Source of the DNA: a virus
DNA length: 64,000 nucleotides
Virus record (IMG/VR): IMGVR_UViG_3300021373_003510
Location: 13,942 to 77,941 of that record
Direction: 5' to 3' (one strand)
Shown: positions 276-44,981 of the stretch, piece by piece
How positions within the stretch are numbered: the stretch's first letter is position 1
Layout of the letters: each line of letters starts with the position of its first letter
Notes under the pieces: generated by a model
Told to the model about the DNA's origin: nothing
The model's input: only the letters and a program-made list of their open reading frames with translations
Databases searched by the model: none
Translations under genes and position numbers: made by a program

Positions 276-3200
276 TTAAATTACTGCTCTTGAGTTCGAA
301 GCTCTTCTTGCTAGCTTACGAACCGAAGAGGTAAATGGTCGGCCTTCAATTCGACCTGTTCGACCGTTAATTCTTAATCCTCTTGCGAAGTACTGGTTAT
401 TCAATTCATCAGCACCTGACCATCGGATTCTACCACCGTCCTCATTAAGAACCGAAGCAACCGCTGATATAGCAGCACCTAAGTTTCTAAAGTTCAGAGG
501 CAATGCATTTCTGTTAACACCAGCTGATGCACCGTTAAACTGGTGAGCAATAGATTCAACCAACGATCCGAATATTAATGTTTCAGGTCTCAATACATTG
601 TCTTTCAGACAGTCGTTGAATAATCCTTCAATCATCAATGAGTGAGTTGAATCAGGAGATAGGTTATTAACAATATATGTTCTCATTCTATCCCACGACC
701 CAACAAACGCATCTAACAAGTCTGTATTGTTAGCACCTTCTAATACCCAAGTTGAACCATTCCAATAATATATATTACCTGCATAGAAGTTTGTGGTATA
801 ATCAGTAGCTACAATGTATGCCCAGTTTGGTTTCATTCCAGTGATTGCTGAAAGATCTGAAACTTGAGCAACTGAACCCTTATACTTCAATCCTTGCATT
901 GTTGGGTTGAATACTGGGAACACATGAGTTCCGTCGTAATCAAATAACGATGCTGTAAATGTTCTTATTGCATTCTGATTTCCGTTTGTTGTATAACTCG
1001 GAACTGGTACAGTAACATCTTCGTATTTGAAATCGTTCTGTAAAGCAGTCAGAAGGTTTCTTGCATCTCTTCTTGTTAAGTTAATATCAAGGAAGTCATA
1101 AGTAGCATTTACATATCTTACAGTATCTTTCTGTAATTCTTTTCTTCTTGTTTGTAAAACATTTCGAGCATCAACAAATGGTGCTGCAGCATAACTGTAA
1201 TCAGGTTCTTCCTTAACAGGTAAGTACTTAGTATCATTATTTATTTGAGTAAAGAAGAAGATATCAGCAAGGTCTTTAACCTTTTTACTTTCAACTTCAG
1301 TTCCTATTTCACCAAGTATCTTCATACCTGGGTATTCACCGATTACGATATCTTTACAAATCTTACCTAGTTGACGATATGACTTAGCAGTTGGTGCTCG
1401 TTGATCTTCAGGCAATCTGTAAACTTGATTCCAGAAGTAGAAATCAGCGTTCCATCTTGAAGCAGTATTACCACCGAAGTTCAAGTCGAAGCTGAATGCA
1501 TCAAGTAAGAAACCTGTATCTCTTCTACACTTATCTTTGTTATAATCAAGTACATTAAATTGACTGTTTATAAATTCAGTTACATCGGAAGCAAGTTCTT
1601 CAGTATTATCAACAAGTTTCTGAGCAGCATTGTTAAGTTCAGTTGTTGGGAAACTTGAATTTGAATAAGGTCTTGGTAATTCATCATTATCATTAGCTCT
1701 TATTGAATTCTCAATAACACCAACCAAGTTAACAACCTCAGTACCTTCAACCGAAGTAGCCGCCGTACCTAATGTATTTTGCGGAGTTAAAGTATATGTA
1801 CTTGCATTGGTTACTGGAGTTTCTTGAACTACCTGAGACATTGCAGTACCAAGCAATTGTAATATGTCAGCATATTGTCTCTGCTGATCTACAGGAAGTA
1901 CTGATACTCCTTTCTCAAAGTAAATGCCTGCTGATTGTAATGTTGCGAAGTTTGTTTCATGTTGAATATCGTGTGATATAGCATCAATAGTATATCCTAT
2001 ATCTCTTCTACATCTTGCTCTTGGGAAACTCAATCCGTTATGATTAACTGATATATAACTTATAACACCTTCTGCAGCAGTATGAGATAATTTCTCAACA
2101 AGCTCTTTAGCAGTTATATAGTTATCTCCCATCCAAGTTTGATCCACATCAATTCTTTCAGGAATTGTAGCTCTTACCTCGTAAGAATCATCAACTGCAT
2201 CAGCAATAAGTTCAACAAGCTTTCTTGTAGCAATACAAGTATCTGGATTTGCACCATGTATTGAGAAGTCTTGAGCTTCTGTTGATTGATACGAAGGTAC
2301 GCCGTTCCAATATTCGTATTTCGTTACAATATCACCAGTGTAATATTTTCCGGTTCTTGGGAATAGTTTTGTTTCAATATCCTTAGCACCAACAACATGT
2401 TCTATAACTTTTGCCATGTGGAGGAATGCATCTCTTGAACCCATTCTTTGTTCGATCTGCAATCCAGTATTTACTGTATTTTCAAAATACATTCCTGCAG
2501 TTTGAACTGAAGCTGCATTACCGCCATATTGAATATCGTGAGAAACTGCATCAATAATATATCCAACATCTCTTCTGCATTTATTTTCACTGAATGGAAG
2601 TATGTCATAATTTTCTGCAAGATGAGCAAGCAAGTCTTTAGCAACTGTTTCTTTAACTCCAAGTACTTCATTAAACGCTGCTTGATTAACTGCATCGTAA
2701 ACTGATACTTTAGGCAATTCATAAGCAGGATTTAAAAGTAAGGTTGCACTTGCAAGAGCATCTGCACAAAGATCAAATAGACCTTCCATTTCGGCACCTA
2801 GCGGAGCACCACCTGAACCTGAACTGAAGTCTTGAGTTAACGCATTGCCTGTTGATTTCAAACCACCTATGTCAGTATCTTGGACAATTAAATCAACACA
2901 ATCTCCAAGATGCTTAAACAGCGCAACTGAAGGTTCAATTTGATCTTCAGGTAAACCAACATTAACTCCCTGTTCAAAATAAAGTCGAGTAAAGTTTTGA
3001 GTAGCAAAGTTACCTTGATGTTGTCCATCAAATGAAACTGCATCAATTAAGTATCCTGTGTCTCTTTCGCATTTAGCAACATCGTAAACATGACTTGGTC
3101 TGTTCGCAGCAAGCCATGCTGTTGCTTCAGCTATTAAGAACGCTTTGTTATTTTGTAGTTGAGATCTACCGTTAATTCGAGCAACACCTTGAGCATTACC

Positions 3201-6200
3201 TGTAAATACGATTGTATCAGCAGCAGCTCTACCATTTGTCATAACATCAATGATTTCATCAAATGCTTCTTCAACTTTAACCTTTAGTGCTGAATCGGTA
3301 ACTGCCTTAACTGCTAAACCTTTCGCAAATTTAATGCCTTCAACTGTCTCAGTTAATTGTTCGTTAATTACTCTGTTTGTACTTACGGTGTCAATTCTGT
3401 AAGCAGTACCGTTAAATACTGCATTATAGTTAGAACCTGTAAGTACATCAACTGCAACTGCATCAAGAAGTAAACCTAGGTCTCTCTTACATCTATCTCC
3501 ATCAAATGTATAATAACGATCTTTCAGATAACCTTGTACTTCTTCAATAATAAAGTCTCTGTTTTGTTGTAATTGCTTTCTTGCTAATGTTCTGTTTGGA
3601 TCGAACGAAGCCTTAGTTAATGTTGGGAATTCATCATCTTCGATATTTACATCATCAACCAAGTCGGCAATTGTATTAATTAAATCATGTACTATTGTAC
3701 CTGTTGCTGCATTAGCCGCAGTTCCATCTGTATTTTGATAAGGACCTGTACTAATTGAACCAACATCAGCAGAAACAAATGTATGTGGATATTGACCTGA
3801 GCCACCGCCACCAACATTCATTGTGATAGTTGTACTAGTGATTGCTGTAATCGTAACCGCTTTATTATAATACGGATGATGTTTCTGTGGTGAGGTATGG
3901 TTTTGCTGACCACTACCCATATCACAACTGAATGTAAATCCTTCAGGTTTCAGATAAACTTTATTACCTACATCAAGTGTATGAGTTCCAATTGTTGCTG
4001 TGAATACTCCAGTTGCCGGATCGTAAGTGGCATTACTTGGATTGAATGTCGTAAATGTTGTGGTATGAGCAACTTCTTTAACAACCTTTTCAGCAACATC
4101 TGCTAGGTGAGCAAATGCTTTTCTTGTTGGTTCGCGTTGTTCATAAGGCAATACATTAATTGCTTCTCTCAATCCTGAAACATTGGCAGTATCTTCATAA
4201 TCGGATAATGTTTTAAATTGTCCTTTTACTTCAATAGGCAATACATTAGTTGATCTTAACTGTTCGTAATCCGCTGATGCAGAATCGAATCTTCTAAAGT
4301 AATAATCAAATACTTCTAATGTATTTTCATTTCCACCGTATTCAATATCTCTTGATACTGCGTCAACAATTAAACCAACATCCCTTTCGCAAACTTCCTT
4401 AGCGTAAGGTAATCCGTTGTGTTCTTTTCTTAGGTAATCAATTACTGACAACGATAGATTTTCTGTTATACCATCAATTGCTTCACAAGCAGCTACCATT
4501 GCAGTTTCAACATTAGGTTCGATGTAAGCAGGTAAATGATCTATTGTATCATCAGAGATTGCTTGAGTTACAATATTAACTCTATCTCTTGCTAAGTTAG
4601 CAACCTCGATACCTCTATCGGTTCCTGAAACATCTTGAGATACAGCATTTCCTGCAGAAGGTGTAATAGTAATATCTCTAACAATATTCCAACATACATC
4701 GGCAATATGTTCCCATGTTTTGTATGTAGGTTCTTTTTGGTCAGCAGGTAATACTGAATTTGCATTTTCAAAATACAATCTTGCGAAGTTGACAGTACAT
4801 GTATTACCGCCAAACTTAACATCTTGTATTAATGAATCAACCAAGTAACCTGTATCTCTTTCACAATCGGCAACACTATATGTTAGTGAAGGATAATTAG
4901 CTGCAATGTAAGCAGTAGTTTCAGCAATAATAAATGCTCTGTTGAGAAGTAGTTGATTAGCAGCTTGTTTATGATCTTCAGTTAAAGCAGCTTCAGCTCC
5001 GTATGTCTTAGTTCCAACAGCACTTGAACCATTTTGTAAGATATCTATAATCTTATCAAAGTGTTGGTTTGAGCGAGTTAATGCAGTTCCTGTAACATTA
5101 GGATCGGCAGCAACCTCAGCCTTTAAGTAATTAATTGCACCTACTGTTTGTACTAACTGATCGTTAATAACTTTGTTAGCACCTACAGAACCAGTTCTAT
5201 AACCTAATCCCATGAATTGAGAATTCCAAGTAGAACCTGTAGCAATATCTCTTCTTACTGAATCAAGAATGAATCCTGAATCTCTTGTACATTTTTCGCC
5301 GTTGAATACAAAGTATTCAGAATCTAAATAATCAGAAACTTCTTTTTGTAAGAACTCTCTGTTAATTTGCATTTGTTCTCTTGCATATTGACCTTGAGAG
5401 TTATAAGTAACTTTCGATACCGCATCTTTGATGACCGATACAAATGTATGGGCTCCACCTGAGCTTGCAGCTAACTGAATAGTAACATCATCACCATTTA
5501 CAGCAGTGATAGCTTGCGGCTCTCTATAATTTGAATCGCCTTTTCTTGGGTATGAATGTTCAGTTGCATTACCATCCTGAGCACATGTATAAGTAAATGA
5601 TAATGGAGCAATCTCAATATAATCATCTGTTGTTAAATCATGACCAGGAATTGTCATTACACTGATTCCTGTAGCAGGATCGTATGTAGCAGTTGTTGGT
5701 GTATAATGCTTGACATAAGAAGCAGGATCTGTAAATACCAATGCGTCTGAATCAATACATCCAACCTCAGCTCTAACGAATGTATGAGCCCCGCCAGGAC
5801 CTGTTCCTACATTCATTGTAATTGTATCAGAGGTTACCGAAGTAATCTTTATAGGCTTCTTATAAGTAATACTATGATGTGATTGAGGAATAGCATGTTC
5901 ATATACATTTCCATCTAATGCACAAGTAAATACAACCGAGCCTGGTTTAATTGATACGTAATCGCCTGCTTCTAAATTATGTTGTCCGATTGTGGCAACA
6001 AATACACCGGTTGTTTCGTCGTAAGTAGCAGTTCTTGGTGTATAAGTAGATACATAATTACGTGTCTTAATATTATTTGGTGTTGCTGATATAAATGTAT
6101 GAGCAGATGTATCAGTTGAAGTACCTGCATTAACTGTAATCGTTGTGTTTGTTGTAGCAGCTACTACTAATGGCTTCTTATAACCAGGATGTTCTCTTGT

Positions 6201-9200
6201 TCCTTTAATAGCGCCTGTGATAGCAGATACAAATGTATGAGCTCCACCGCCGTTTGTAGATATACCTACATTACAACCAATTACATTTCCTTCGACTGAA
6301 GTTAATTTAACTGGCTTCTTAAAGAACGGATGATGTTCTTCAGGCACAGGGTGATTTGTTTGGTTATTATCAATTGCACAAGTAAATGTAATACCTCTTG
6401 GGGCAAATTCTATTTCATCCCCTACTCTCAATTTGTGCGTACCAATGTCTGCCGTAAACTCACCTGTAGCAGGATCATAAGAAGCAGTGCTTGGAGTAAA
6501 TCTTGTTACTGTTCTTGTTGGATATGAATGTTGAGTTGCATTACCATCCAAATCACAAGTATATGTTAAGCTCTCAGGAGCAATTAATATTTCTTGCCCA
6601 ACTTGTAAATCGTGAGAACCAATTGTAAGTACAGTTAAACCTGTTAAAGGATCATAAGTAGAATTTGAAGTTGAATAAGTTTTACCTGTGCTGTTTAGCA
6701 TATCAACAATTTTATCAAATGCTTCATCTGATCTGAACCCAGAAGCTTTATCATCAATTGCCTTAACATGTGTAATTGCATTATCGAGAGCAGATACAAA
6801 TGTATGAGCGTTTGATCCACCGTACCCAACAAACATTGTGATAGTTGTTGGAGTTGTAGATTCAATTGGACAAGGATGATTATAGAAAGGATGTCCTGGA
6901 TTTGGAACAGCATCGTTTGTAGGTCCGCTTCCTGTATCACAACTAAATGTAACACCATCCTCAAGGAACCTTACGTAATCACCAGCTTTTAATTCGTGAC
7001 GACCAATTGTAGCAGTAAAGATTCCTGTTTCAGGATCATATGTTGCATCAGTTGGAGTAAACGATTTTCCTTGGTTCTTCGCAGGAGTAATTGCATTTGC
7101 GACAGCGGATACAAATGTATGTGCTTGTTGACCTGTTGCTCCACCGTATCCTACGTTTAATGTAATAGTTGTATTTGATACTCCTATGATTGGACAAGGA
7201 ACTCCATTTGCGTATGGGTGATGAGCTTCAGGAACCGCGTGGTTTGTAGGACCTGACCCAGTATCACAACTGAATGTAATACCTTGCATCGCAAATACGA
7301 CAGTATCTCCGACTGCCAATGTATGAGCTCCAATAGTTGCTTCCATGATTCCTGTAGAAGGATCGTATGTTGCATCAGTAGGTTGGAAACCATTTTCAGT
7401 TTGAAGCGTATTAACTCTTCTCTTAAGTTCGTTTATTGCACCAGTTGTTTGTGTCAACTGATCGTTAATTACATTATCAGCTAACTCTGTACCTGCACGA
7501 TAAGCAAGTCCTGTCTGATATGCATTATAGTTTGAACCTGTTAAAATATCTCTTTCAACTGCAGGTAAGATGTACTCTGTAATATCTCTTCTACATTTTT
7601 TAGAATCATATCTGAAGTATGTTTCATCAAGATATCCATCAACGTAATCTTGTAAGAATCCTCTGTTTGCTTGTAATTGCTTTCTTGCGTTTCTCTTATT
7701 AGCAGGAATGTCTATACTATCAGACCACTTAATAGTATCACCTAATACTGAAACTGCACCTGTTGCAGCTTCTACGAATTGATAATCAAATGCAAATGGC
7801 TGTGTACCAACGTTGACTGTAATTTTACCAGGGACTGCACCCAATACTTCGACTGGAGTTTCATGAGCAGGATAACCTGGTTTTGGATAATAAGATCTTG
7901 TTTTATGACCATCTCTGCTACAAGTCATGGTGAAACCACCTGTCTTAAGCAATACATAATCGCCAACATTTAATCCATGACCTGACTGAATAGCATTTGG
8001 AGTAGCAGAAACAAATGTATGTACTTGTTGACCAGTATCTCCACCGTAACCAACATTCATTCTTATCTTATTTTTACTTACACCAATAATTGGGCATGGC
8101 TTTTCGTAATAAGGATGATGAGCTTCAGGAACAGCGTGATTTGTAGGACCTGAACCAGTATCGCAAGACCAAGTAATACTCTCAGGATTGAACCAAACAA
8201 AATCTCCTACTTCTAATTCATGCTTACCAATGTTTGCTTCCATAATTCCTGTAGCAGGATCATAAGTTCCATCAGTCATTTGATGAGATTTTGAATCTCC
8301 TATTGTAATAACAAAAAGACCAGTTACTGGATCATAGGTTGCATTACTAGGTGTATATTGTTTTCCTTTATTCTCAAGGATTTGTAAAACATTATCGTAA
8401 GCATCATCAAGTCGTTGTGAAGCAAGATAAGAATCACCATCTATCAATTCATTAGTCTGATCCTTTAATCTATTGTAAGCAGCAACTGTTTCGTTATTCT
8501 GATTTTCTATAACTGCCTTTCCTGCTTGCATATAATATGCTCGACCTGCAGTAAGTGAATTATAGTTAGTATCAAATAACATATCATTCTTAACGGCAGG
8601 AATAATATAATCAGAAACATCTCGACGACAAGATTTGCTATCATATGCAAAGAACTCATCGTTGTTTTCGATCCAATCAATTAGCTCTTCGGTAATGAAC
8701 TCTCGATTGTCTTGTAATAGCTTTCTAGCAGCTGTTCGAGGCACTGAAGTATCTTGCCATATAATCGGGTTAATGTTCTCTTCACCGTATTCTAAGACAT
8801 TTAGAAGCTCGGCAAAGGATGTATCAATCCTTGAATTAATTTCATTATTTGCTGAAATAAAGATTTCTTTTGATCTATCTCTTAGGTATTCGTTTGCACC
8901 TTTTGTTTCTTCAAGCTGTTCACCAGGAACAACATAACTGATTGGAGACCTATAAGTAATACCGGCAAGTCTTCCCCAATAGTTCGTATCAAGTGCAACG
9001 TCATAACCTGTACCATCAACTATGATACCTGAATCTCTTAAACATTTTTCTGAATCGTATTCTTGATAACCTAATCCACCATTTGCTGAATTGGCTGTTA
9101 GGTAATAAACCATATCATCAATAATTTCTTCGGCATTATTATCAATAGTATCGGCAAATGCAGTATTACCAATAATTGTTGCCGTTGTTCCTTTTGGAGC

Positions 9201-11537
9201 AAAGAACTCGGTAGTTCCTTTTGCTCGCATTGATATATCACCGAACTGAGTACCTGAGTTGTTCAGCGTCATCTGACCACCGTTCAGAGCATAGAACGCG
9301 CAACGAACGAAGATTGACAATGAACCAATACCGTTAACACCAGCACCGTCTCGAGCAACATATCCTAAACCGTTTTGTGTACGAGGTGTGAAACCAAAAC
9401 ATAATACATATGTATATAATGAATCAGTATCAAGTACTCTTCTATCTGCAAGTACACAACCACCGCCTCGACCAACTTCTCTGTTCGGGAAGTCGTCAAT
9501 ACCGATTGATTGAATAACACCTACACCACCTGATTCTGAAGTTACTGTATCACCTACAGCAAAACCTTCACCGTTTTTGAGGTTACGAACTCTGATAGTA
9601 CGATTAGTTGAAATATCTAAATCATTGCCTGCGGTTTGGTCATCGGTATCATCCCATGATAGGAAACCTATAGCACCAGATGAGAATACAACTTCATCAT
9701 CTTTTTGCCATAATTGTCTTTGTCCACCGTTTCCTGGGTAAGCACCTAAAGCAGCGTTGCCGCTATCAAATGTATGTCCTACTTCTAATACAAATGTTCT
9801 ACCTAAGTCAGCAAGTGTACCTTTTGAGTTATAAGGATTAAGAGGTGGTTCAACATCTTGTCTTAAGAAGTTTGATAACTGAGTACTATCTCTAAGATAT
9901 GGAGATCTTAATAGTTTAGCACCTGGTCGATATGCAATCGCAAATCCACCTTCTGGGAAATCAAAGTTATCAACTTGGAAGTTTTGATAACCAAATCCTT
10001 GAACGTAACAACCTGAACCTACAAGAATACCGTTATTGTTTTCGTATCCTTTCTCAAGTTCAATTACAGTTGCATACTGACCTGCGGTTGAAGTACAGGA
10101 ACAATCATCAGGTAACTGCAGATTACCTTTTGTATAATAAGTTCCTGGTCCAACCGAAATATGAACAGCATTGTTAATTGCGTTACGATTGAGTTCACCA
10201 CCTGCTTTTTCTAAACAAAGTTCAAATCCTCTCTCGAGAGTTCTAACAGGAGCCAACATTGTACCTGGGTTCTTATCATCACCAGATCCTGCGTCAACGT
10301 GTACCTTTAATGCTTGAGCTGTTTTCTTAGATACTTCTTCGAATAATTGACCGAAGTTAATTTGTTCAGTTTCACCAGTTTGTTCGTTACGAATTGCGAA
10401 ATATGATTCGTCATCAATAGGAGCTTCAAACTCCTTAGTGAGATCCATATCAAAGTCAGCAAGTCTTGACCTATCAATTGTACCGCCACTAAATACTGAT
10501 CCTGAAAGTGCACCATTATCGAATGTTGAATTATTTGCTCCGAGACCATCGGCAGACGAACTGCGGATTGTCATATCGGTTGCTACAACATTTTGCATTG
10601 TACCTTGGAAGTCAGTATTAGAAATTACTCCATCAGTGAATACTGAATCATCGATAGTTGAATTAGTTAATGTGACATTATTACCTGTGCCATCATTAAA
10701 CTGAGAATTAGTTATGATAGTATTATTTGAAGTACTATCATTAAGTTGTGAACTTGTTAGGACAACGTTATTACCAGTTGAGTCAAATATTTGTCCATTT
10801 GTAAATGATGAGCTTGTTAGTGTAACATTATTGCCTGTGCCATCATTAAATACCGATTGTGTAATCGTTACATTGTTTGCTGTTGAATCGTTAAGAACAG
10901 AATTAGCAAGTCTTATGTTATCGCCGTCAACATCTGACATTGTGCCAGCAGTGAATGACGAACTTGTCATTGTAATATTATTTGCTACAGAATCAGTAAT
11001 TGTAGAATCATCGATTGTAGAATTAGTTAATACTACATTATTACCTGTACCGTCATTAAACGATGAATTGGTAATCGCAACATTGTTTGCTGTGCTATCG
11101 TTAAGCTCAGAATTTGTTAGAACAACATTATTACCTGTACCGTCATTAAACTCTGATTGAGTTATAACTACATTGTTGGCTGTTCCGTTATTGAAAGATG
11201 AACTTGTGATCGCAACATTATTAGCAGTACCATCATTAAACTCTGAATTTGTAATAACTGTATCGTCGATAGTACCACGAACAAAATCTGTATCTTCGAT
11301 ATCTGAATTATCAATTGTGACATTATCGAGTCTGGAATCTGACATGACAACACCGGAGATTGTTCCCCCAGTGATTTTGATCCTCGAGAAAGTTTCGTAT
11401 TGAATTGCTTCAACAAGTTCCTTTCTTGTAATATTACTGGTGCCATCGTCACCTTGGACAAGGTTGACAATAACGAACAGATCTTCAGACCTGGTATTTG
11501 CACCGGTAATCGGAGGTAATTCTGAAATCTTTGCCAT
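276..11537 (-). CDS. Giant (3753 aa) virion structural / tail-fibre-like protein with beta-solenoid repeats, a pectin-lyase-like region, 9 YDPxTG beta-modules and about 12 CxRD helical repeats
   Basis: Uninterrupted ORF; MAKISELP N-terminus typical of phage fibres; motif VHVDAGSGDDKNPGTMLAPVRTL; late promoter upstream; sits in the tail module. Confidence 0.8.
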   Translation of the reverse strand: MAKISELPPITGANTRSEDLFVIVNLVQGDDGTSNITRKELVEAIQYETFSRIKITGGTISGVVMSDSRLDNVTIDNSDIEDTDFVRGTIDDTVITNSEFNDGTANNVAITSSSFNNGTANNVVITQSEFNDGTGNNVVLTNSELNDSTANNVAITNSSFNDGTGNNVVLTNSTIDDSTITDSVANNITMTSSSFTAGTMSDVDGDNIRLANSVLNDSTANNVTITQSVFNDGTGNNVTLTSSSFTNGQIFDSTGNNVVLTSSQLNDSTSNNTIITNSQFNDGTGNNVTLTNSTIDDSVFTDGVISNTDFQGTMQNVVATDMTIRSSSADGLGANNSTFDNGALSGSVFSGGTIDRSRLADFDMDLTKEFEAPIDDESYFAIRNEQTGETEQINFGQLFEEVSKKTAQALKVHVDAGSGDDKNPGTMLAPVRTLERGFELCLEKAGGELNRNAINNAVHISVGPGTYYTKGNLQLPDDCSCTSTAGQYATVIELEKGYENNNGILVGSGCYVQGFGYQNFQVDNFDFPEGGFAIAYRPGAKLLRSPYLRDSTQLSNFLRQDVEPPLNPYNSKGTLADLGRTFVLEVGHTFDSGNAALGAYPGNGGQRQLWQKDDEVVFSSGAIGFLSWDDTDDQTAGNDLDISTNRTIRVRNLKNGEGFAVGDTVTSESGGVGVIQSIGIDDFPNREVGRGGGCVLADRRVLDTDSLYTYVLCFGFTPRTQNGLGYVARDGAGVNGIGSLSIFVRCAFYALNGGQMTLNNSGTQFGDISMRAKGTTEFFAPKGTTATIIGNTAFADTIDNNAEEIIDDMVYYLTANSANGGLGYQEYDSEKCLRDSGIIVDGTGYDVALDTNYWGRLAGITYRSPISYVVPGEQLEETKGANEYLRDRSKEIFISANNEINSRIDTSFAELLNVLEYGEENINPIIWQDTSVPRTAARKLLQDNREFITEELIDWIENNDEFFAYDSKSCRRDVSDYIIPAVKNDMLFDTNYNSLTAGRAYYMQAGKAVIENQNNETVAAYNRLKDQTNELIDGDSYLASQRLDDAYDNVLQILENKGKQYTPSNATYDPVTGLFVITIGDSKSHQMTDGTYDPATGIMEANIGKHELEVGDFVWFNPESITWSCDTGSGPTNHAVPEAHHPYYEKPCPIIGVSKNKIRMNVGYGGDTGQQVHTFVSATPNAIQSGHGLNVGDYVLLKTGGFTMTCSRDGHKTRSYYPKPGYPAHETPVEVLGAVPGKITVNVGTQPFAFDYQFVEAATGAVSVLGDTIKWSDSIDIPANKRNARKQLQANRGFLQDYVDGYLDETYFRYDSKKCRRDITEYILPAVERDILTGSNYNAYQTGLAYRAGTELADNVINDQLTQTTGAINELKRRVNTLQTENGFQPTDATYDPSTGIMEATIGAHTLAVGDTVVFAMQGITFSCDTGSGPTNHAVPEAHHPYANGVPCPIIGVSNTTITLNVGYGGATGQQAHTFVSAVANAITPAKNQGKSFTPTDATYDPETGIFTATIGRHELKAGDYVRFLEDGVTFSCDTGSGPTNDAVPNPGHPFYNHPCPIESTTPTTITMFVGYGGSNAHTFVSALDNAITHVKAIDDKASGFRSDEAFDKIVDMLNSTGKTYSTSNSTYDPLTGLTVLTIGSHDLQVGQEILIAPESLTYTCDLDGNATQHSYPTRTVTRFTPSTASYDPATGEFTADIGTHKLRVGDEIEFAPRGITFTCAIDNNQTNHPVPEEHHPFFKKPVKLTSVEGNVIGCNVGISTNGGGAHTFVSAITGAIKGTREHPGYKKPLVVAATTNTTITVNAGTSTDTSAHTFISATPNNIKTRNYVSTYTPRTATYDETTGVFVATIGQHNLEAGDYVSIKPGSVVFTCALDGNVYEHAIPQSHHSITYKKPIKITSVTSDTITMNVGTGPGGAHTFVRAEVGCIDSDALVFTDPASYVKHYTPTTATYDPATGISVMTIPGHDLTTDDYIEIAPLSFTYTCAQDGNATEHSYPRKGDSNYREPQAITAVNGDDVTIQLAASSGGAHTFVSVIKDAVSKVTYNSQGQYAREQMQINREFLQKEVSDYLDSEYFVFNGEKCTRDSGFILDSVRRDIATGSTWNSQFMGLGYRTGSVGANKVINDQLVQTVGAINYLKAEVAADPNVTGTALTRSNQHFDKIIDILQNGSSAVGTKTYGAEAALTEDHKQAANQLLLNRAFIIAETTAYIAANYPSLTYSVADCERDTGYLVDSLIQDVKFGGNTCTVNFARLYFENANSVLPADQKEPTYKTWEHIADVCWNIVRDITITPSAGNAVSQDVSGTDRGIEVANLARDRVNIVTQAISDDTIDHLPAYIEPNVETAMVAACEAIDGITENLSLSVIDYLRKEHNGLPYAKEVCERDVGLIVDAVSRDIEYGGNENTLEVFDYYFRRFDSASADYEQLRSTNVLPIEVKGQFKTLSDYEDTANVSGLREAINVLPYEQREPTRKAFAHLADVAEKVVKEVAHTTTFTTFNPSNATYDPATGVFTATIGTHTLDVGNKVYLKPEGFTFSCDMGSGQQNHTSPQKHHPYYNKAVTITAITSTTITMNVGGGGSGQYPHTFVSADVGSISTGPYQNTDGTAANAATGTIVHDLINTIADLVDDVNIEDDEFPTLTKASFDPNRTLARKQLQQNRDFIIEEVQGYLKDRYYTFDGDRCKRDLGLLLDAVAVDVLTGSNYNAVFNGTAYRIDTVSTNRVINEQLTETVEGIKFAKGLAVKAVTDSALKVKVEEAFDEIIDVMTNGRAAADTIVFTGNAQGVARINGRSQLQNNKAFLIAEATAWLAANRPSHVYDVAKCERDTGYLIDAVSFDGQHQGNFATQNFTRLYFEQGVNVGLPEDQIEPSVALFKHLGDCVDLIVQDTDIGGLKSTGNALTQDFSSGSGGAPLGAEMEGLFDLCADALASATLLLNPAYELPKVSVYDAVNQAAFNEVLGVKETVAKDLLAHLAENYDILPFSENKCRRDVGYIIDAVSHDIQYGGNAASVQTAGMYFENTVNTGLQIEQRMGSRDAFLHMAKVIEHVVGAKDIETKLFPRTGKYYTGDIVTKYEYWNGVPSYQSTEAQDFSIHGANPDTCIATRKLVELIADAVDDSYEVRATIPERIDVDQTWMGDNYITAKELVEKLSHTAAEGVISYISVNHNGLSFPRARCRRDIGYTIDAISHDIQHETNFATLQSAGIYFEKGVSVLPVDQQRQYADILQLLGTAMSQVVQETPVTNASTYTLTPQNTLGTAATSVEGTEVVNLVGVIENSIRANDNDELPRPYSNSSFPTTELNNAAQKLVDNTEELASDVTEFINSQFNVLDYNKDKCRRDTGFLLDAFSFDLNFGGNTASRWNADFYFWNQVYRLPEDQRAPTAKSYRQLGKICKDIVIGEYPGMKILGEIGTEVESKKVKDLADIFFFTQINNDTKYLPVKEEPDYSYAAAPFVDARNVLQTRRKELQKDTVRYVNATYDFLDINLTRRDARNLLTALQNDFKYEDVTVPVPSYTTNGNQNAIRTFTASLFDYDGTHVFPVFNPTMQGLKYKGSVAQVSDLSAITGMKPNWAYIVATDYTTNFYAGNIYYWNGSTWVLEGANNTDLLDAFVGSWDRMRTYIVNNLSPDSTHSLMIEGLFNDCLKDNVLRPETLIFGSLVESIAHQFNGASAGVNRNALPLNFRNLGAAISAVASVLNEDGGRIRWSGADELNNQYFARGLRINGRTGRIEGRPFTSSVRKLARRASNSRAVI
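10460..11360 (-). repeat. Coding 15-aa (45-nt) tandem repeats, NNVxLTxSxFNDGTG, predicted beta-solenoid
   Basis: Repeats are visible in the protein and at DNA level (ttacctgtaccgtcattaaac at 11041 and 11131). Confidence 0.85.
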
Positions 11538-11565: not shown

Positions 11566-11573
11566 TATTTATA
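11566..11573 (-). promoter_or_regulatory. T4-type late promoter TATAAATA
   Basis: Exact gp55 consensus about 30 nt upstream of the giant ORF. Confidence 0.8.
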
Positions 11574-36319: not shown

Positions 36320-36781
36320 ATGGCATATAAAGGTCGATTTAGACCAAAGAACCCCAATAAGTATAAAGGGGATCCTACTAAGATTATTTATAGGTCTTTA
36401 TGGGAGTTTAAAGTATTTAAGTATGTAGATACACACCCTGATGTTATTTGGTGGCAATCTGAAGAAGTGGTTGTACCTTATAGGTCGCCTATAGATGGAA
36501 AAATACATAGGTATTTTCCTGATGTTGTAGTACATAAAAAAGATAACTTAGGTAATCTTAATACAATTATGATTGAGATTAAACCAAGCGCTCAATGTAG
36601 ACCGCCTGATCCTAAGAATAAAAATAAAACAAAAACTGGTAGAGTATCAAGAAGATATTTAAATGAAGTTAAAACATGGGGAGTCAACGAAGCAAAGTGG
36701 AAAGCAGCAAGATCTTTTTGTGCTGACCGTGGTTGGTTGTTTACTATCATGACAGAAAAGCATATACCAGGAGCAAGGTAA
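36320..36781 (+). CDS. gp4: Head completion nuclease gp4
   Basis: MAYKGRFRPKNPNKYKGDPTKIIYRSLWE; HRYFPD; IEIKP; VNEAKWKAA. Confidence 0.93.
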   Translation: MAYKGRFRPKNPNKYKGDPTKIIYRSLWEFKVFKYVDTHPDVIWWQSEEVVVPYRSPIDGKIHRYFPDVVVHKKDNLGNLNTIMIEIKPSAQCRPPDPKNKNKTKTGRVSRRYLNEVKTWGVNEAKWKAARSFCADRGWLFTIMTEKHIPGAR

Positions 36782-37387
36782 ATGGCGACAATTTTTACAG
36801 ATATATTAGCAAAAGGAATTCGTCAAGGTCAAGTGCCTGCTCGAACAACAGCTGCTAGAGAATGGTATCGTAACCAAGCAAGAACAGGTCGCACCAGTGC
36901 TGAAGAAGTAATTTCAGGAACAAAGAAAAGTAATACAAGAGCAACAGTTTCTAATGAAAGTCATATCGGCCAAATGTTATTATTTGAGTATGATGCAAAA
37001 CATAAAGACACATTACCGTATTATGATCGCTTCCCTCTGATATTCCCAATAAATATAGTTAAAGGTGGATTCATGGGAATCAACATGCATTACTTACCAC
37101 CACAATTGAGAGCACAATTAATGGACCAATTATATACAGTTGCTAACAATGATAAGTATGATGCAAAGACAAGATTAATGTTATCTTACGATGTATTAAA
37201 TGGTGCATCGAAGTTTAGATTATTTAAGCCAACAATTAAAAGATATTTACAAAGACAAGTAAGATCTAGGTTTATAAAGATAGCATCGAGCGAATGGGAT
37301 ATTGCATTATTCTTACCGCTTCAGAAATTTGTTGGTGCAAGTAGTAATAAAGTATATGCTGATTCAAGAAAGATCATAAGAGGATAA
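36782..37387 (+). CDS. gp2: DNA end protector gp2
   Basis: YDAKHKDTLPYYDRFPLIF; GINMHYLPP. Confidence 0.92.
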   Translation: MATIFTDILAKGIRQGQVPARTTAAREWYRNQARTGRTSAEEVISGTKKSNTRATVSNESHIGQMLLFEYDAKHKDTLPYYDRFPLIFPINIVKGGFMGINMHYLPPQLRAQLMDQLYTVANNDKYDAKTRLMLSYDVLNGASKFRLFKPTIKRYLQRQVRSRFIKIASSEWDIALFLPLQKFVGASSNKVYADSRKIIRG

Positions 37388-37388
37388 C

Positions 37389-38168
37389 ATGGCATTTAAT
37401 ATTAGCAATTTTAAAAGTAGCTTTGAAAGATACGGCGGACCTGCTAAAGCAAACTTGTTTGAAATACAACTAAGTAAGCTGCCAAGGTTTATGCCTGAAA
37501 ATAAACAAATGGATTACTTGAGAGAAATTAAATTCTTTTGTAGTGAAGTTACCTTTCCTGCTATCAATATTAATACATCAGAAATTGCACATGCAGGTCA
37601 AATGTTAAAAAGATATCCAACTGCAGTACAAAATCCTGGTCCTTTATCTGCTAAGTTCTTAGTTGATAGTGATCATCAAATATTAACATTCTTTCATAAC
37701 TGGTCGCAACAAATAGTTCAGTATAGTAAAAGAGGTGGAGCTTTTGCTGAAACCGATGGAAAGCTTCCACACGAGGTTGGATTCAAAAATGACTTTGCTT
37801 GTGATTTATTAATTAAACATTTTACAACAGATAGTTTTCCAAATACTTATTATGAAGCAAAATTATATAAAGTTTTTCCTGTTGCGGTTGGTGCATTGGC
37901 ATTAAACTGGGAAGGAGCAAGTTCGTTTCTTTCACTTGATGTTCAATTCAGTGCTGAAGATATGGAATTCAGTTCTGATAAAACTGGTAAGACAGGAGAT
38001 CGCTCAAAAAGAGGAGGCGGTCTTTTAGATATCCTTGGAGATATCGCTGGGTTTGCTGATACTGTAAGAGGTACAGTTAAATCAGGTAGACCTACGAGTA
38101 TACAAGATGCGGTAAACAGATTAAATAGATTAGGTAACGCAATTGATAACTTGGGTGACAACATTTAA
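37389..38168 (+). CDS. Tail-tube initiator gp54 / gp19-like protein
   Basis: GGPAKANLFEI; LYKVFPVAVGALALNW; gene context. Confidence 0.75.
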   Translation: MAFNISNFKSSFERYGGPAKANLFEIQLSKLPRFMPENKQMDYLREIKFFCSEVTFPAININTSEIAHAGQMLKRYPTAVQNPGPLSAKFLVDSDHQILTFFHNWSQQIVQYSKRGGAFAETDGKLPHEVGFKNDFACDLLIKHFTTDSFPNTYYEAKLYKVFPVAVGALALNWEGASSFLSLDVQFSAEDMEFSSDKTGKTGDRSKRGGGLLDILGDIAGFADTVRGTVKSGRPTSIQDAVNRLNRLGNAIDNLGDNI

Positions 38169-38184
38169 ATTATAGGAGTATATA

Positions 38185-38886
38185 ATGGCACTACCAAAAA
38201 TTAATTTACCAATTTCGGAATTAGTTCTTCCGTCAAGTGGTAAGAAAATAAAATACAGACCTTTTTCTGTAGCAGAAGAAAAAGTATTACTTGTCGCAGG
38301 TGAGACTGGCGACCCAGTACAAGAAATGGTTGCTATGAAGCAAATTTGTAATAACTGTTTAATTGATACTGATGTTGAAACTCTTGCTATGTTTGACTTT
38401 GAATACTTGTTCTTAAAGTTAAGATCAAGGTCGGTAGATAATGTATCTAAGTTTGTGGTTAACGATCCTGATACAAAACTTCCTGTTCAGTTGGAAGTTG
38501 ATATTGACGACATTAATTATATCTTTGACGAAGGTCATACAAAAGAAATAGATATAAATGATGAATATCGTTTATTTTTAAAGTATCCTGGGATTGATGA
38601 TTTTATCGCAATCATTGATAAAGATCCTGAGGATCCATTAACAAATTATTATATTATGACAAAGTGTTTAGATAAGCTTGCATCGGAAGATGAAGTACAC
38701 GAGTTTAGTGAATATAGTGATGAAGAGATTGATGAATTCTTGGATGGAATATCAAGTGAGATATTGAAAAAGATTGGAAATTTCTTTGACACAATGCCGA
38801 AACTAAAACATTCAATTGAATATGAAAATAGTGAAGGAAAGAAAGTAACATTTAATATTGAGGGTACGAGAAGTTTTTTTACCTAA
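38185..38886 (+). CDS. gp26: Baseplate hub protein gp26 (possible tail assembly chaperone)
   Basis: MALPKINLP..LVLPSSGKKIKYRPFSVAEEKVLL; FDFEYLFLKLRSRSV; FFDTMPKL; ends EGTRSFF. Confidence 0.88.
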   Translation: MALPKINLPISELVLPSSGKKIKYRPFSVAEEKVLLVAGETGDPVQEMVAMKQICNNCLIDTDVETLAMFDFEYLFLKLRSRSVDNVSKFVVNDPDTKLPVQLEVDIDDINYIFDEGHTKEIDINDEYRLFLKYPGIDDFIAIIDKDPEDPLTNYYIMTKCLDKLASEDEVHEFSEYSDEEIDEFLDGISSEILKKIGNFFDTMPKLKHSIEYENSEGKKVTFNIEGTRSFFT

Positions 38887-38921
38887 GCCTTAGTCATATT
38901 AGCCTAGGGCATTATTATCAA

Positions 38922-39053
38922 ATGATATTTTCTATGGCACAACACCACAAATGGTCTGTGTCCGAAATTGAGGCTATGATACCTTATGAGCGGGATTTAT
39001 ATTTTAATATGTTAATAGAATTTATAGAACAGCAAAAGGAAGCACAACAGTAA
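38922..39053 (+). CDS. gp51: gp51-like baseplate hub assembly protein (43 aa from first ATG; frame open from 38862, possibly reached by -1 frameshift)
   Basis: MIFSMAQHHKWSVSEIEAMIPYERDLYFNML resembles gp51 (QHHKYSLxELENMxPWERxIY); not in the ORF track. Confidence 0.8.
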   Translation: MIFSMAQHHKWSVSEIEAMIPYERDLYFNMLIEFIEQQKEAQQ

Positions 39054-39067
39054 AAGGTTAGTAACAA

Positions 39068-40897
39068 ATGGCAGAGAATAAAGATCAAATAGTAGAACGC
39101 CTAACGGAGGAAGGACTCTTATTAAGAAATAAGGGTACTAATTCTCTTAAGTCAGTTAAAGATAGAATAGGCGATTTAGATACAAAGTTTAGCGGAGTAC
39201 TAAATTCTATTTCAATGCGCACTGGTGAAACTGCTCGTGCTTTAGGTTCAATTGAAAGTTATTTAATAACAGGAAATACTATTGCTAACGAAGGTCTTAA
39301 TGAGCTTGCTGATAGAATAGACACAACTAACGAACAAGCAAAAGAACAAGCCGAAGATCAAAGACAACAAGATCAGGAAAACAGAAGACAAGAAAACGAA
39401 AATAGAAGAGAAGGGATTCTTCAAAATCCATTTAGTGCCATCATGGGAGACCTTGATAATTTAAGAAAGGATATAAGACAAAAGCCTGGAGAAACTTTAT
39501 TTAAAGGATTGAAATATGCGTTCCTTGCTCCTATCTTAGCAGGTGCGGTAAAAGGAGTATTAGATTTAACATTTGGAGAAGGTTGGATTGATTCTCCGAT
39601 TATGCAATTAGTTAGAGAGAATCCTGCTAAAGCTTTAATTGGAGCATTCGTTGCATTTAAGGCAGTTGATTGGATTGCGATTGGCGCATCTATTACATCA
39701 GCTATGTTATCTCTTAAAGCAATGGCCATGTCGAACGGCGGAAGAGGTGGACCTGTTGTTGCTCCTGGTGCTCCGGGAGCTCCTGGCGGTCAGGGTTCAA
39801 AGGGTAGTAGGTTAAAGAATTTCTTAAAAGGCAATAAAGGTAAAGTAGGTTTAATTTTAGGAGGCACAGGTTTATTATTATACGGCAACGAATTCTTTGA
39901 CGGTGATGATGTCAAAGATGTTGAATCTGAAGTAAAAAGAATTAATCAAGAAGCAACTGCAGATGAACAGCGTGTTATTGATGAAAAATTAACAAGTTTT
40001 GAAAAAGAAAGAACAGGACTAGGCGATGCTTTAATTGACGCAACGACAGGTGCAGGTATTGGTTTCCTTACAGGTGGTCCTGTTGGCGCATTGGTTGGTG
40101 CTGCAGGTGGTCTTGCCTTTACTTTGATTGGAAGAACATGGGAAGCCATTGATGATTCTATGAATGATATTGATGCTATACCTAATGATATTGAGCAAGC
40201 ATTACGACAAGAAACAGCAGCTCTCAATAGAAGAAGAAATAAATTATCAGCAGAACAACAAGTAGAGCTATATAAAACTACTAACGCGGCAATTGAAAAA
40301 ACAATCAAAGATCTTACTGATGAAACTGGTACAATGGATGCTGACATTGCTGCATTAGAAGGTGTTGATTTTGAAGCCGGCGTTACAAGAAGAACAGGCG
40401 GAAGATCTGGTAGGGAAATTACAGAGTTTGAAGTTAACGGCGAAATGTTAGAAAGAAGTGAAATAGAGAAAAAGCTACAAGACCTTAAAAATGAAAGAAT
40501 ATTAAGAGAAGAACAACTCGTTGCTTCAAGAAGAATTTTAGAATTAAGACAACAAGAATCCGAAGCAGTACAAGAAAATATTAATGCACAAGGAGAAGCA
40601 ACTGATACTGTTGCCGCAGTTGCCGATGAAGTACTTAAAAAGACAGGTACTAATCCTGAAATTGATCCTGACACAACAACAAGAGAAAGAGATGTTAGAA
40701 CAACACAAACTGGTGGGTTTGCTTTTAATACAGTAAATAATTACTATAATAAAGGTGGTGATAACATTATGACAAACAGTTCTGATAACAGATCAAATGT
40801 TAGTAAGAATGTTGGTGTTGTTGTAAATGGTGGCGGTGGTGGAGGAAGTCGTTTCTCAGGTGGATTAATTGGTCCTAACGGACAAGCTATGGGATAA
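39068..40897 (+). CDS. Tail tape-measure-like protein (gp29-like)
   Basis: 609 aa of coiled coil with Gly/Ala hydrophobic segments; directly after gp26/gp51. Confidence 0.6.
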   Translation: MAENKDQIVERLTEEGLLLRNKGTNSLKSVKDRIGDLDTKFSGVLNSISMRTGETARALGSIESYLITGNTIANEGLNELADRIDTTNEQAKEQAEDQRQQDQENRRQENENRREGILQNPFSAIMGDLDNLRKDIRQKPGETLFKGLKYAFLAPILAGAVKGVLDLTFGEGWIDSPIMQLVRENPAKALIGAFVAFKAVDWIAIGASITSAMLSLKAMAMSNGGRGGPVVAPGAPGAPGGQGSKGSRLKNFLKGNKGKVGLILGGTGLLLYGNEFFDGDDVKDVESEVKRINQEATADEQRVIDEKLTSFEKERTGLGDALIDATTGAGIGFLTGGPVGALVGAAGGLAFTLIGRTWEAIDDSMNDIDAIPNDIEQALRQETAALNRRRNKLSAEQQVELYKTTNAAIEKTIKDLTDETGTMDADIAALEGVDFEAGVTRRTGGRSGREITEFEVNGEMLERSEIEKKLQDLKNERILREEQLVASRRILELRQQESEAVQENINAQGEATDTVAAVADEVLKKTGTNPEIDPDTTTRERDVRTTQTGGFAFNTVNNYYNKGGDNIMTNSSDNRSNVSKNVGVVVNGGGGGGSRFSGGLIGPNGQAMG

Positions 40898-43871: not shown

Positions 43872-44028
43872 GTACCTCCTGAAGTTCTTTTGCTAATTTG
43901 TCAAAATCTTTACCACAAGAATCACAAAGAGTTACTTTGTGTTTACCATCAGCGGTATTCATTTCAACCGTATATGCTTTGTGCTTTGGAGTTGTAGTAT
44001 TACAATAAAAACATCTTGTCTTCAGCAT
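43846..44028 (-). CDS. Small zinc-ribbon protein
   Basis: CFYC and CDSC pairs; overlaps both gp44 and gp62. Confidence 0.6.
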   Translation of the reverse strand: MLKTRCFYCNTTTPKHKAYTVEMNTADGKHKVTLCDSCGKDFDKLAKELQEVLDERPNTI

Positions 44029-44981
44029 TATACATACTCACACTCAATCATTACCTCGGTTAAGAAGGCAACCATATTAATTTCTTGGTCAGCAACTAAA
44101 CCTGACTTATACATATAATCAGCAAGAGTTACAATAAACCCAGCTTGACTTTGAAGTGTAACCTTTTCAGATGCTGCATCGTATAGCCTACGAAACATTT
44201 CATTCATATCTTGGTCAGAGTTCTTGGCAACCCATTTACGCATATCGGTAAACTGTTTGCCTTTGAGCATTTTGAATAACTCATCAATAGATTCTTCTTT
44301 CAAATTAACAAAGATACCTTCATCAATTTTACCTGAAGCTGCATATGATTGTAATTCAGTTAGTACTCTACGAAAATCAGGAAAGTGCTTTTCAATAACT
44401 TTAGCAACTACTTGCTTGTTATATTCAACGCCTTCTTGTTCGAGAATTCCCATTACACGTTTGAAGAACTCCATTGCCATTTGTGGACGATCATCAGTAT
44501 CAATAGTAAAGTCAACTTCAGAAAGTCGAGATCTCAATGGACTGATAATACGATTCTTGAAATTACAAGTAAAGATAAATCCACAGTTAGAGGAATATTC
44601 TTCAATAAAATTACGAAGAGCAGGTTGAACATTAGCTGCGTTCAAATAATCTGCTTCGTCAAAAATTACATACTTACGACCTGTACCTGTTAGAGAAACA
44701 GCGGATGCGAAAGTAGAGATGTCGTATCGGAGAGTATCAATATTAACATTAAGAGAACCGTTCTTTACGATATAATCGCAACCAAGTTCTTCAAGCATTG
44801 CCTTTGCGATAGTAGTCTTACCTACACCGGGACCGCCTGTTAATAATAGATTTGGAACACTTCCGTCGGATACGAACTTACGGAATGTTTCTTTTGTCTT
44901 TTCTGGTAAAATAGTATCAGTAACTACTTGAGGACGATACTTTTCAACCCATAAGACTTCGTTTGATTTTGCATCAATCAT
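44028..44981 (-). CDS. gp44: Clamp loader AAA+ subunit gp44
   Basis: LWVEKYRP; GGPGVGKTT; DEAD; PLRSR; FPDFRR. Confidence 0.96.
   Translation of the reverse strand: MIDAKSNEVLWVEKYRPQVVTDTILPEKTKETFRKFVSDGSVPNLLLTGGPGVGKTTIAKAMLEELGCDYIVKNGSLNVNIDTLRYDISTFASAVSLTGTGRKYVIFDEADYLNAANVQPALRNFIEEYSSNCGFIFTCNFKNRIISPLRSRLSEVDFTIDTDDRPQMAMEFFKRVMGILEQEGVEYNKQVVAKVIEKHFPDFRRVLTELQSYAASGKIDEGIFVNLKEESIDELFKMLKGKQFTDMRKWVAKNSDQDMNEMFRRLYDAASEKVTLQSQAGFIVTLADYMYKSGLVADQEINMVAFLTEVMIECEYV

Follow-up and report, generated by a model that had tools for sequence, protein, structure and literature searches.

Results

A giant gene carrying a tandem array of phycobiliprotein-like domains

The subject of this report is a giant open reading frame (ORF) in the IMG/VR virus record IMGVR_UViG_3300021373_003510, of which we analyzed positions 13,942 to 77,941, a stretch of 64,000 nucleotides referred to here as the window. 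The single uninterrupted ORF, on the minus strand from 11537 down to 276, encodes a protein of 3753 amino acids in which the motif C-x-R-D, known as the covalent bilin motif of phycobiliproteins (PMC10151467), occurs 12 times against 0.12 occurrences expected by composition. Eleven of these copies share the helical context Y-x-F/Y-x(3,4)-C-x-R-D-x-G-x-I/L-x-D-A-x(3)-D-x(3)-G-G-N. The remaining one, a C-S-R-D with its Cys at residue 1206 (codon 7920-22), sits in a beta-rich module outside the helical repeats. A degenerate repeat has T-R-R-D, at 1074-76, in place of the motif.

An earlier note, made from the nucleotide sequence, had described this protein as some 12 tandem phycobiliprotein-like domains, eleven with C-x-R-D and one with TRRD. 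The Cys codons lie exactly where it had placed them, and the peptides it quoted, KDKCRRDTGFLLDAFSFDLNFGGN and NKCRRDVGYIIDAVSHDIQYGGN, are both found in the protein; the C-S-R-D copy was absent from it. A profile built from ten of the repeats and used for domain calls by hmmsearch likewise finds 12 domain copies, of about 100 to 200 residues each. The gene and its phycobiliprotein-like domains are as follows, with codon positions given for each motif residue.

276..11537, (-): giant ORF, carrier of the domain array; predicted baseplate-attached fibre or virion structural protein (PHROG matches, gene position)
8862..9164, (-): domain 1, residues 792-892, CLRD, Cys832 (codon 9042-44); hmmsearch E 5e-12, motif
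8442..8825, (-): domain 2, residues 905-1032, CRRD, Cys970 (8628-30); hmmsearch E 6e-40, motif
7422..7739, (-): domain 3, residues 1267-1372, CRRD, Cys1315 (7593-95); hmmsearch E 2e-34, motif
5124..5423, (-): domain 4, residues 2039-2138, CTRD, Cys2083 (5289-91); hmmsearch E 2e-33, motif
4650..5120, (-): domain 5, residues 2140-2296, CERD, Cys2225 (4863-65); hmmsearch E 5e-59, motif
4062..4655, (-): domain 6, residues 2295-2492, CERD, Cys2383 (4389-91), with an insertion of about 40 residues; hmmsearch E 5e-55, motif
3339..3737, (-): domain 7, residues 2601-2733, CKRD, Cys2683 (3489-91); hmmsearch E 4e-39, motif
2868..3326, (-): domain 8, residues 2738-2890, CERD, Cys2823 (3069-71); hmmsearch E 2e-56, AlphaFold2 model ma67ce39416a9
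2355..2852, (-): domain 9, residues 2896-3061, CRRD, Cys2987 (2577-79); hmmsearch E 3e-60, AlphaFold2 model m2d472dbaae0b
1797..2294, (-): domain 10, residues 3082-3247, CRRD, Cys3176 (2010-12); hmmsearch E 2.5e-59, motif
1344..1793, (-): domain 11, residues 3249-3398, CRRD, Cys3337 (1527-29); hmmsearch E 2.5e-57, motif
1020..1298, (-): domain 12, degenerate, residues 3414-3506, TRRD, Thr3488 and no Cys; hmmsearch E 1.4e-6, motif

Profile comparison with phycobiliproteins

For comparison we assembled 28 phycobiliprotein sequences sharing less than 80% identity, drawn from Acaryochloris plasmid pREB3 and three cyanobacterial genomes and including Cpc, Cpe and Apc proteins as well as divergent paralogues. 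Alignment by hhalign of a profile of 547 repeat copies to the profile of this set gave a probability of 95.7% and an E-value of 9e-9 over 103 aligned columns. The register places C-x-R-D on Cys84-x-Arg86-Asp87, the 'L-x-x-N-x-x-x-I' helix of the repeat on helix B with its conserved Asn aligned, and the Tyr five residues ahead of the repeat Cys on Tyr74. A second comparison from independent alignments, of 93 repeats against 20 phycobiliproteins, returned the same register with a probability of 84.6% and an E-value of 6.8e-6. The highest score among 22 negative controls (reversed profiles and 20 column shuffles) was 22.3, compared to 54.2 for the true pair. Removal of the four motif columns from both profiles left the register unchanged, with a score of 31.8 (P 8e-5), and removal of seven gave 25.4; the drop means that about 40% of the hhalign signal comes from C-x-R-D and the rest from other columns.

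The spacing around the motif also corresponds. Real CpcA sequences, from Acaryochloris pREB3 and elsewhere, read K-C-x-R-D-I-G-Y-Y-L-R-...-G-G-T; their G-G falls at +18/+19, counted from the Cys, which is the spacing of the phage repeat and the one that the earlier note had given for phycocyanin alpha. Phycobiliprotein alpha subunits resemble the phage repeat in their Gly at +5 as well as in this G-G. The two kinds of domain are similar in size, at about 160 residues, and in having the Cys close to position 90, and their homology spans helices B to G of the globin-type fold common to the phycobiliproteins (CpcA/B, ApcA/B/D/F, CpeA/B and the bilin domain of ApcE).

Differences are equally plain. 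The N-terminal X-Y hairpin of phycobiliproteins is unmatched in the phage repeat, and local alignments begin at phycobiliprotein residue 36-37. Asp13 and Arg93, which we take to make the alpha-beta contact in phycobiliproteins, are invariant in 20 aligned phycobiliproteins but not in the phage repeats, where 78% of copies have Asp in the Arg93 column. Phycobiliproteins are free subunits of 17-20 kDa, whereas the phage domains occur as 4-37 tandem copies within giant structural proteins, and no phycobiliprotein-type lyases, linkers or photosystem genes accompany the array. The Pfam model PF00502 matched neither the whole protein (E up to 1) nor any of ten single repeats (E up to 10), and a sequence-profile search of the PDB with the repeat returned nothing meaningful. 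In the strict sense, therefore, the repeats are not members of PF00502.

Predicted structure

AlphaFold2 models were built from two different repeats, domains 8 and 9, with different alignments. Both contain six helices and have a pLDDT of 71; a deeper alignment with 93 sequences brought no gain in confidence (70.9 vs 71.2). Foldseek searches against 350,542 PDB chains gave top lists for both models that consist almost entirely of phycobiliproteins, with E-values of 0.04-0.7 and TM-scores up to 0.51. VIA-align, run exhaustively against 48,161 representative chains, ranked a far-red allophycocyanin first (Z 10.5, for the domain 9 model), followed by another allophycocyanin (9.9), the globin domain of a photocobilin (9.9), phycoerythrin (9.6) and ApcE bilin domains (9.3 to 8.9). 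A second photocobilin domain scored 8.2, a heme-binding globin-coupled sensor 9.3 and the DosC heme globin 8.4. Superposition on allophycocyanin, phycoerythrin and ApcE gave root-mean-square deviations of 2.8-3.8 Å over 99-118 residues.

Since bilin-binding globins crowd the top of the structural list and the sequence evidence agrees, we consider the repeats very probably homologous to the superfamily of bilin-binding globins that includes phycobiliproteins, BBAGs and photoglobins. The description of these domains as globin-fold and phycobiliprotein-like thus holds, with the Cys placed on Cys84 and phycobiliproteins as the top structural matches. Of the comparisons with the phycobilisome protein family, profile-profile homology and fold superposition came out positive and the direct Pfam match negative.

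A large family with a conserved site

Searched against 1.84 billion cluster representatives, the repeat profile identifies 1327 proteins at E <=1e-3 and 547 at E <=1e-30. Most are giant, up to 6382 amino acids long, with up to 37 repeat copies per protein; in the best 150 proteins the copy number ranges from 4 to 34, with a median of 9. The repeat constitutes a new, previously undescribed and divergent family in a new architectural setting. Full-text literature searches found no paper on phycobiliprotein-like domains in phage structural proteins.

In phycobiliproteins the Cys of the motif is the point of thioether attachment, the Arg binds a propionate of the bilin, and the Asp hydrogen-bonds its pyrrole nitrogens. 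Over about 1600 repeat copies from 151 proteins, at a mean column identity of about 22%, these residues are conserved at 95% (Cys), 95% (Arg) and 99% (Asp), and the complete triad is intact in 1491 of 1606 copies (93%). In 85 independently fetched viral loci, C-x-R-D is kept in 576 of 635 copies. Invariant positions peculiar to the family are an Asp at +14 (100%) and a Tyr at +30 (98%), and a Thr is conserved at 90%.

Copies that lack the Cys, 78 in number, give indirect evidence on the site. Among them Arg is kept in just 51%, Asp in 72% and Tyr +30 in 58%, whereas Asp +14 remains at 96%, although degenerate copies may simply be more diverged overall. Phe, Tyr or Trp takes the place of the Cys in 37 of the 78. 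Relaxation of Arg and Asp upon loss of the Cys, together with bulky replacements, is the pattern expected if the triad serves one ligand and a side chain later fills the vacated site.

Bilin-synthesis genes in array-bearing genomes

Genes for a ferredoxin-dependent bilin reductase (FDBR, PF05996) and an adjacent heme oxygenase (PF01126) occur in five of 16 array-bearing viral contigs of at least 80 kb. These include all four of the 16 that are at least 79% complete, namely G007 (222 kb), G019 (365 kb), G012 (266 kb) and G015 (280 kb). A reverse search starting from the FDBR of G007 retrieved two 100%-complete genomes, G020 (190 kb) and G022 (203 kb, with terminal repeats), both of which carry a C-x-R-D array, along with fragments that carry none. 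The only complete relative in the clade of the present phage, G030 (221 kb), has a gp6 that is 58% identical, a fibre orthologue of 3674 amino acids with 12 domain matches, and the heme oxygenase and FDBR genes. The array-bearing genomes with the gene pair are G007, G011/G012, G015, G019, G020, G022 and G030, and the cassette is found in seven of the seven near-complete array-bearing genomes examined (79-100% complete). Among 50,697 cultured phage records, FDBR is confined to cyanophages and Pelagibacter phage Mosig, and this rarity makes the co-occurrence in seven of seven noteworthy.

The present contig (78 kb, 36% complete) and its 92%-identical relative G004 (156 kb, 73% complete) are a different case. 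A search of the genome for bilin-synthesis genes, suggested with the original description of the domains, was negative for both of these contigs and positive for complete relatives, which have heme oxygenase and FDBR. No PF00502 match exists anywhere on the present contig. In G030 the cassette (heme oxygenase 143997-144536, FDBR 144771-145454) lies in a 24-kb block of about 30 ORFs (G030:C1:137902-161700; loci L327, L328 and L316) that has no homologue in the present contig or G004, and the blocks flanking it lie at either end of contig G004. That the present contig and G004 lack the cassette is therefore uninformative.

In G007 the pair sits among homologues of gp32, gp59 and gp33; beside it, between gp59/gp33 and other T4-like genes (L206, G007:C1:130000-140000), are a rubrerythrin, a weak match to 2-oxoglutarate-Fe(II) oxygenases and a family-2 glycosyltransferase. 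The closest cultured FDBR, at 40% identity, is that of phage Mosig, where heme oxygenase, FDBR, ferrochelatase and five 2-oxoglutarate-Fe(II) oxygenase genes are found next to neck genes (L282/L329, MT647606.1 39650-44735).

Identity of the phage

The gp6 of this phage is closest to those of Sinorhizobium phages phiN3 and phiM12 (40%), followed by Stenotrophomonas, Rhizobium, Caulobacter, Methylophilales and Pelagibacter phages, while cyanophage sequences stand at about 31%. Neither psbA nor psbD was found in the present contig or G004, in the 16 array-bearing contigs of at least 80 kb, or in G020 and G022, and G030 has no psbA. An ordinary cyanophage was considered and rejected, given the absence of psbA/psbD and a gp6 nearer to phages of the phiM12 type. 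Judged from these genes, the virus is probably an uncultured marine T4-like phage whose host is not a cyanobacterium.

Among cultured phages, tblastn finds the array only in 33 records of Synechococcus and Prochlorococcus myoviruses, including S-RSM4, S-RIM32, S-WAM1 and P-RSM6, at 23-29% identity; searched with the profile, Mosig, HTVC008M, Melnitz and phiM12 show none. The cyanomyovirus carriers are, like the giant ORF, fibre or baseplate proteins, variously annotated as 'short tail fiber', 'virion structural protein' or 'baseplate wedge initiator', and the published annotations are silent on the domain. Core genes of the present phage, by contrast, are nearer to phiM12-type phages of alphaproteobacteria. 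In P-RSM6 (L331, HQ634193.1 103907-129628) an 8573-amino acid ORF annotated as 'hypothetical protein' has at least six domain copies, three of them with C-x-R-D; this phage also encodes pcyA, and thus offers a culturable test system.

Setting of the array in the giant protein and the window

The giant ORF matches PHROG families 701, 5342, 18802 and 4527, at E-values from 1e-129 to 2e-57, with the labels 'virion structural protein', 'tail fiber protein' and 'short tail fiber protein'. Directly upstream is a T4-like baseplate block that encodes a hub/lysozyme, a gp6-like wedge protein, a wedge-fibre connector and fibre-like proteins. The product of the giant ORF is accordingly assigned, from these matches and its position, as a fibre-type virion protein attached to the baseplate. 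A match to the T4 late-promoter consensus about 29 nt before the ATG suggests late expression, in keeping with the proposal that the domains are strung into a late fibre. Orthologues have 3674 amino acids in G030 and 3830 in G034, and a 92%-identical one occurs in G004 (L011). A megablast search of the region against cultured phages found no match. Features of the gene other than the domain array are the following.

11566..11573, (-): TATAAATA, T4-type late-promoter-like motif; sequence match
10428..11537, (-): N-terminal part, residues 1-370, pentapeptide-type repeats (NNVxxTxSxFNDGT...); PF13599 Pentapeptide_4, E 1.2e-11, over the curated cut-off
5448..7400, (-): beta-rich modules, main block, with 'ATYDPxTG ... 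TFxCD ... NHxxPxxHHP ... AHTFVS'; motif counts
7758-8420 and 3738-4055, (-): beta-rich modules, other copies; motif counts
279..1019, (-): C-terminal region, residues 3507-3753; no recognised family

The helical array is broken up by the interleaved beta-rich modules. These number about 8-10 and are rich in His and Cys, following the pattern 'ATYDPxTG...IGxHxLxxGDxV...TFxCD...NHxxPxxHHP...AHTFVS', and they could be a metal-binding module of the fibre. Pfam recognizes the N-terminal pentapeptide repeat alone in the whole protein, leaving the beta-rich modules without a match, and PDB sequence searches with residues 380-800, one beta module and the C-terminus found no matches.

Elsewhere in the window, which is otherwise coded on the minus strand, a plus-strand island at 36320-40897 (+) contains an ORF with a TnsA-like endonuclease N-domain (36320-36781), a tail-tube-like ORF and a T4 baseplate (PF12322) ORF; the GC skew switches at about 36-40 kb. 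A C-5 cytosine DNA methylase (PF00145) at 47653-48876 (-) adjoins replication genes, among them the clamp loader at 44028-44981.

Discussion

Relation to known bilin-binding systems

Phage-encoded bilin synthesis, by enzymes such as PebS, PcyA, PcyX and HemO, has been known for about two decades. Cassettes of hemO with pcyX or pcyA, in some cases followed by alaS, were described in 2024 from marine and freshwater phages thought to infect alphaproteobacteria (Nature Communications, PMC11480375). That study judged a light-harvesting role unlikely and raised phytochromes or BBAGs merely as possibilities; the purpose of the cassette in phages of heterotrophs was left unexplained, with no acceptor protein known (PMC11480375). 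The array-bearing genomes have the same gene pair in the same setting, that of T4-like phages without photosystem genes. Where the published cassettes come with no named bilin acceptor, these genomes encode a candidate acceptor too. The present contig itself does not carry the cassette.

BBAGs, the phycobiliprotein paralogues of heterotrophic bacteria, are linked to genes for heme oxygenase and FDBR and attach bilin to themselves without lyases (Rockwell et al. 2023, PMC10151467). BBAG-1 and BBAG-3 carry C-X-R-D, while BBAG-2 proteins bind biliverdin (PMC10151467). BBAGs and the photoglobins or photocobilins occur outside photosynthetic organisms, in genomes with heme oxygenase and FDBR, a pairing that the phage domains show in the seven near-complete genomes and not on the present contig or G004. 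Photocobilin globin domains also rank high in the structural list of the phage domain (Z 9.9 and 8.2). BBAGs differ in being single-domain soluble proteins encoded beside FDBR in bacterial gene clusters. The phage domains are arrayed in a virion protein whose gene stands well apart from the cassette; G030 has its array at about 30-38 kb, and heme oxygenase and FDBR follow only at about 144-145 kb.

Proposed function

The analysis itself establishes homology, fold and retention of the chromophore triad. Going beyond these, we lean, by a modest degree, toward the view that the phage domains bind bilin covalently, because the triad is both conserved and co-varying, because the bilin pathway co-occurs with the array, and because BBAGs provide a precedent. 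Each intact domain would attach a linear tetrapyrrole covalently while the particle assembles. Attachment would probably be autocatalytic, as in BBAGs and ApcE, since no lyase gene is found. The pigment would derive from host heme through a heme oxygenase and a ferredoxin-dependent bilin reductase of the phage itself. As to its role, we can only speculate that the pigment might serve the domain as a cofactor for folding or stability, shield the sunlit particle as photoprotectant or antioxidant, or sense light and so modulate adsorption.

A number of observations weigh against covalent bilin binding or the homology beneath it. Motif columns account for the roughly 40% share of the hhalign score given above; the pLDDT of 71 is middling, the Foldseek E-values are weak, and a Z-score of about 10 is unexceptional for helical proteins. 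Arg93, Tyr97 and Asp13, all invariant in phycobiliproteins, are not kept in the phage repeats, which have invariant residues of another kind, Asp +14 and Tyr +30. The genomes that have both array and cassette are related to one another, and so are not independent observations. Neither the present contig nor G004 has heme oxygenase, FDBR, CpeT or phycobiliprotein genes, and three array-bearing contigs that are 53-73% complete (G004 and two at 53-56%) have no cassette. No lyase gene of the CpeT or CpeS type (T-type or S/U-type) was found in five complete array-bearing genomes. In 96 kb of phage Mosig, including all annotated structural genes, filter-free hmmsearch with the repeat and phycobiliprotein profiles and a motif scan detected no array and no C-x-R-D domain. 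The cassette therefore does not need the array, and the bilin of Mosig goes to some destination other than phycobiliprotein-like domains. Lastly, the cultured cyanophage P-RSM6 keeps C-x-R-D in only three of its six detected copies.

The main rival to bilin binding is a purely structural role, in which descendants of bilin globins now serve as pigment-free helical spacers of the fibre and the Cys, Arg and Asp are kept as a buried polar or packing network for the fold. The carrier is, after all, a fibre-type structural protein. The family-specific Asp +14 and Tyr +30 are missing in phycobiliproteins, the phycobiliprotein residues Arg93, Tyr97 and Asp13 are not retained, and the lack of a lyase gene, the lack of bilin genes on this contig and G004 and the array-free cassette of Mosig would all follow readily. 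We nonetheless regard this explanation as rather unlikely, though it deserves to be taken seriously. Packing hardly explains why a lone Cys should persist at 95% in some 1600 extracellular copies that are about 22% identical, nor why Arg and Asp should relax upon its loss while Asp +14 does not. Replacements of the Cys are mostly bulky aromatics, as though filling a cavity, and a rare cassette of heme oxygenase and FDBR is present in all seven near-complete array-bearing genomes, none with photosystem genes.

Alternatively, the same site might take another ligand: biliverdin in non-covalent form, a heme like that of globin-coupled sensors, or a metal bound through the Cys and Asp. A globin-coupled sensor and DosC stand high in the structural list (Z 9.3 and 8.4), and the family-specific invariant Asp, Asn and Tyr could be ligands; the BBAG-2 proteins offer an example of biliverdin binding (PMC10151467). 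However, the motif held in common is that of covalent bilin attachment rather than a heme-ligating His, sequence comparison points to phycobiliproteins and puts the Cys on Cys84, and the co-occurring enzymes produce reduced bilins, all of which makes a different ligand improbable. It is less probable still that an unrelated helical bundle has come by C-x-R-D through convergence or chance. Such a bundle would account for the failure of PF00502 to match single repeats even at E 10, for the empty PDB sequence-profile search and for Foldseek E-values above 0.01. It would not account for hhalign probabilities of 95.7% and 84.6% over about 100 columns, with scores above all 22 negative controls and a register that persists without the motif columns, nor for two independent models that retrieve phycobiliproteins first, both among 350,000 chains by Foldseek and among 48,161 representatives.

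Implications

Taken to its full extent, covalent bilin binding leads to a broader proposal that we advance tentatively and with real doubt. Pigmented particles may be made by many T4-like and jumbo phages, as yet uncultured, that infect non-photosynthetic aquatic bacteria, and by some cyanophages. The phage's own enzymes would turn host heme into a bilin that attaches autocatalytically to fibre arrays of 4-37 domains, forming a chromophore rod that is light-sensing or light-protective. Being a lineage of C-X-R-D globins carried by phages, the repeat family might also help to explain how phycobiliproteins arose.

The immediate significance is that a virion protein with up to dozens of attachment sites of the phycobiliprotein type, encoded in the same genomes as the cassette, is a candidate answer to the acceptor puzzle, and one open to direct experiment. 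Should bilin binding prove false, the array would still be a plain example of a phage fibre built with a fold taken over from antenna proteins. Should it prove true, no earlier phage particle would be known to bear a pigment, and the phycobiliprotein fold would for the first time have a structural use outside photosynthesis. The domains would then represent a large new branch of the bilin-binding globin superfamily, with 1327 cluster representatives unseen by Pfam. Such a branch would bear on the origin of phycobiliproteins, a question that Rockwell et al. (2023, PMC10151467) left open, and could yield fluorescent tags.

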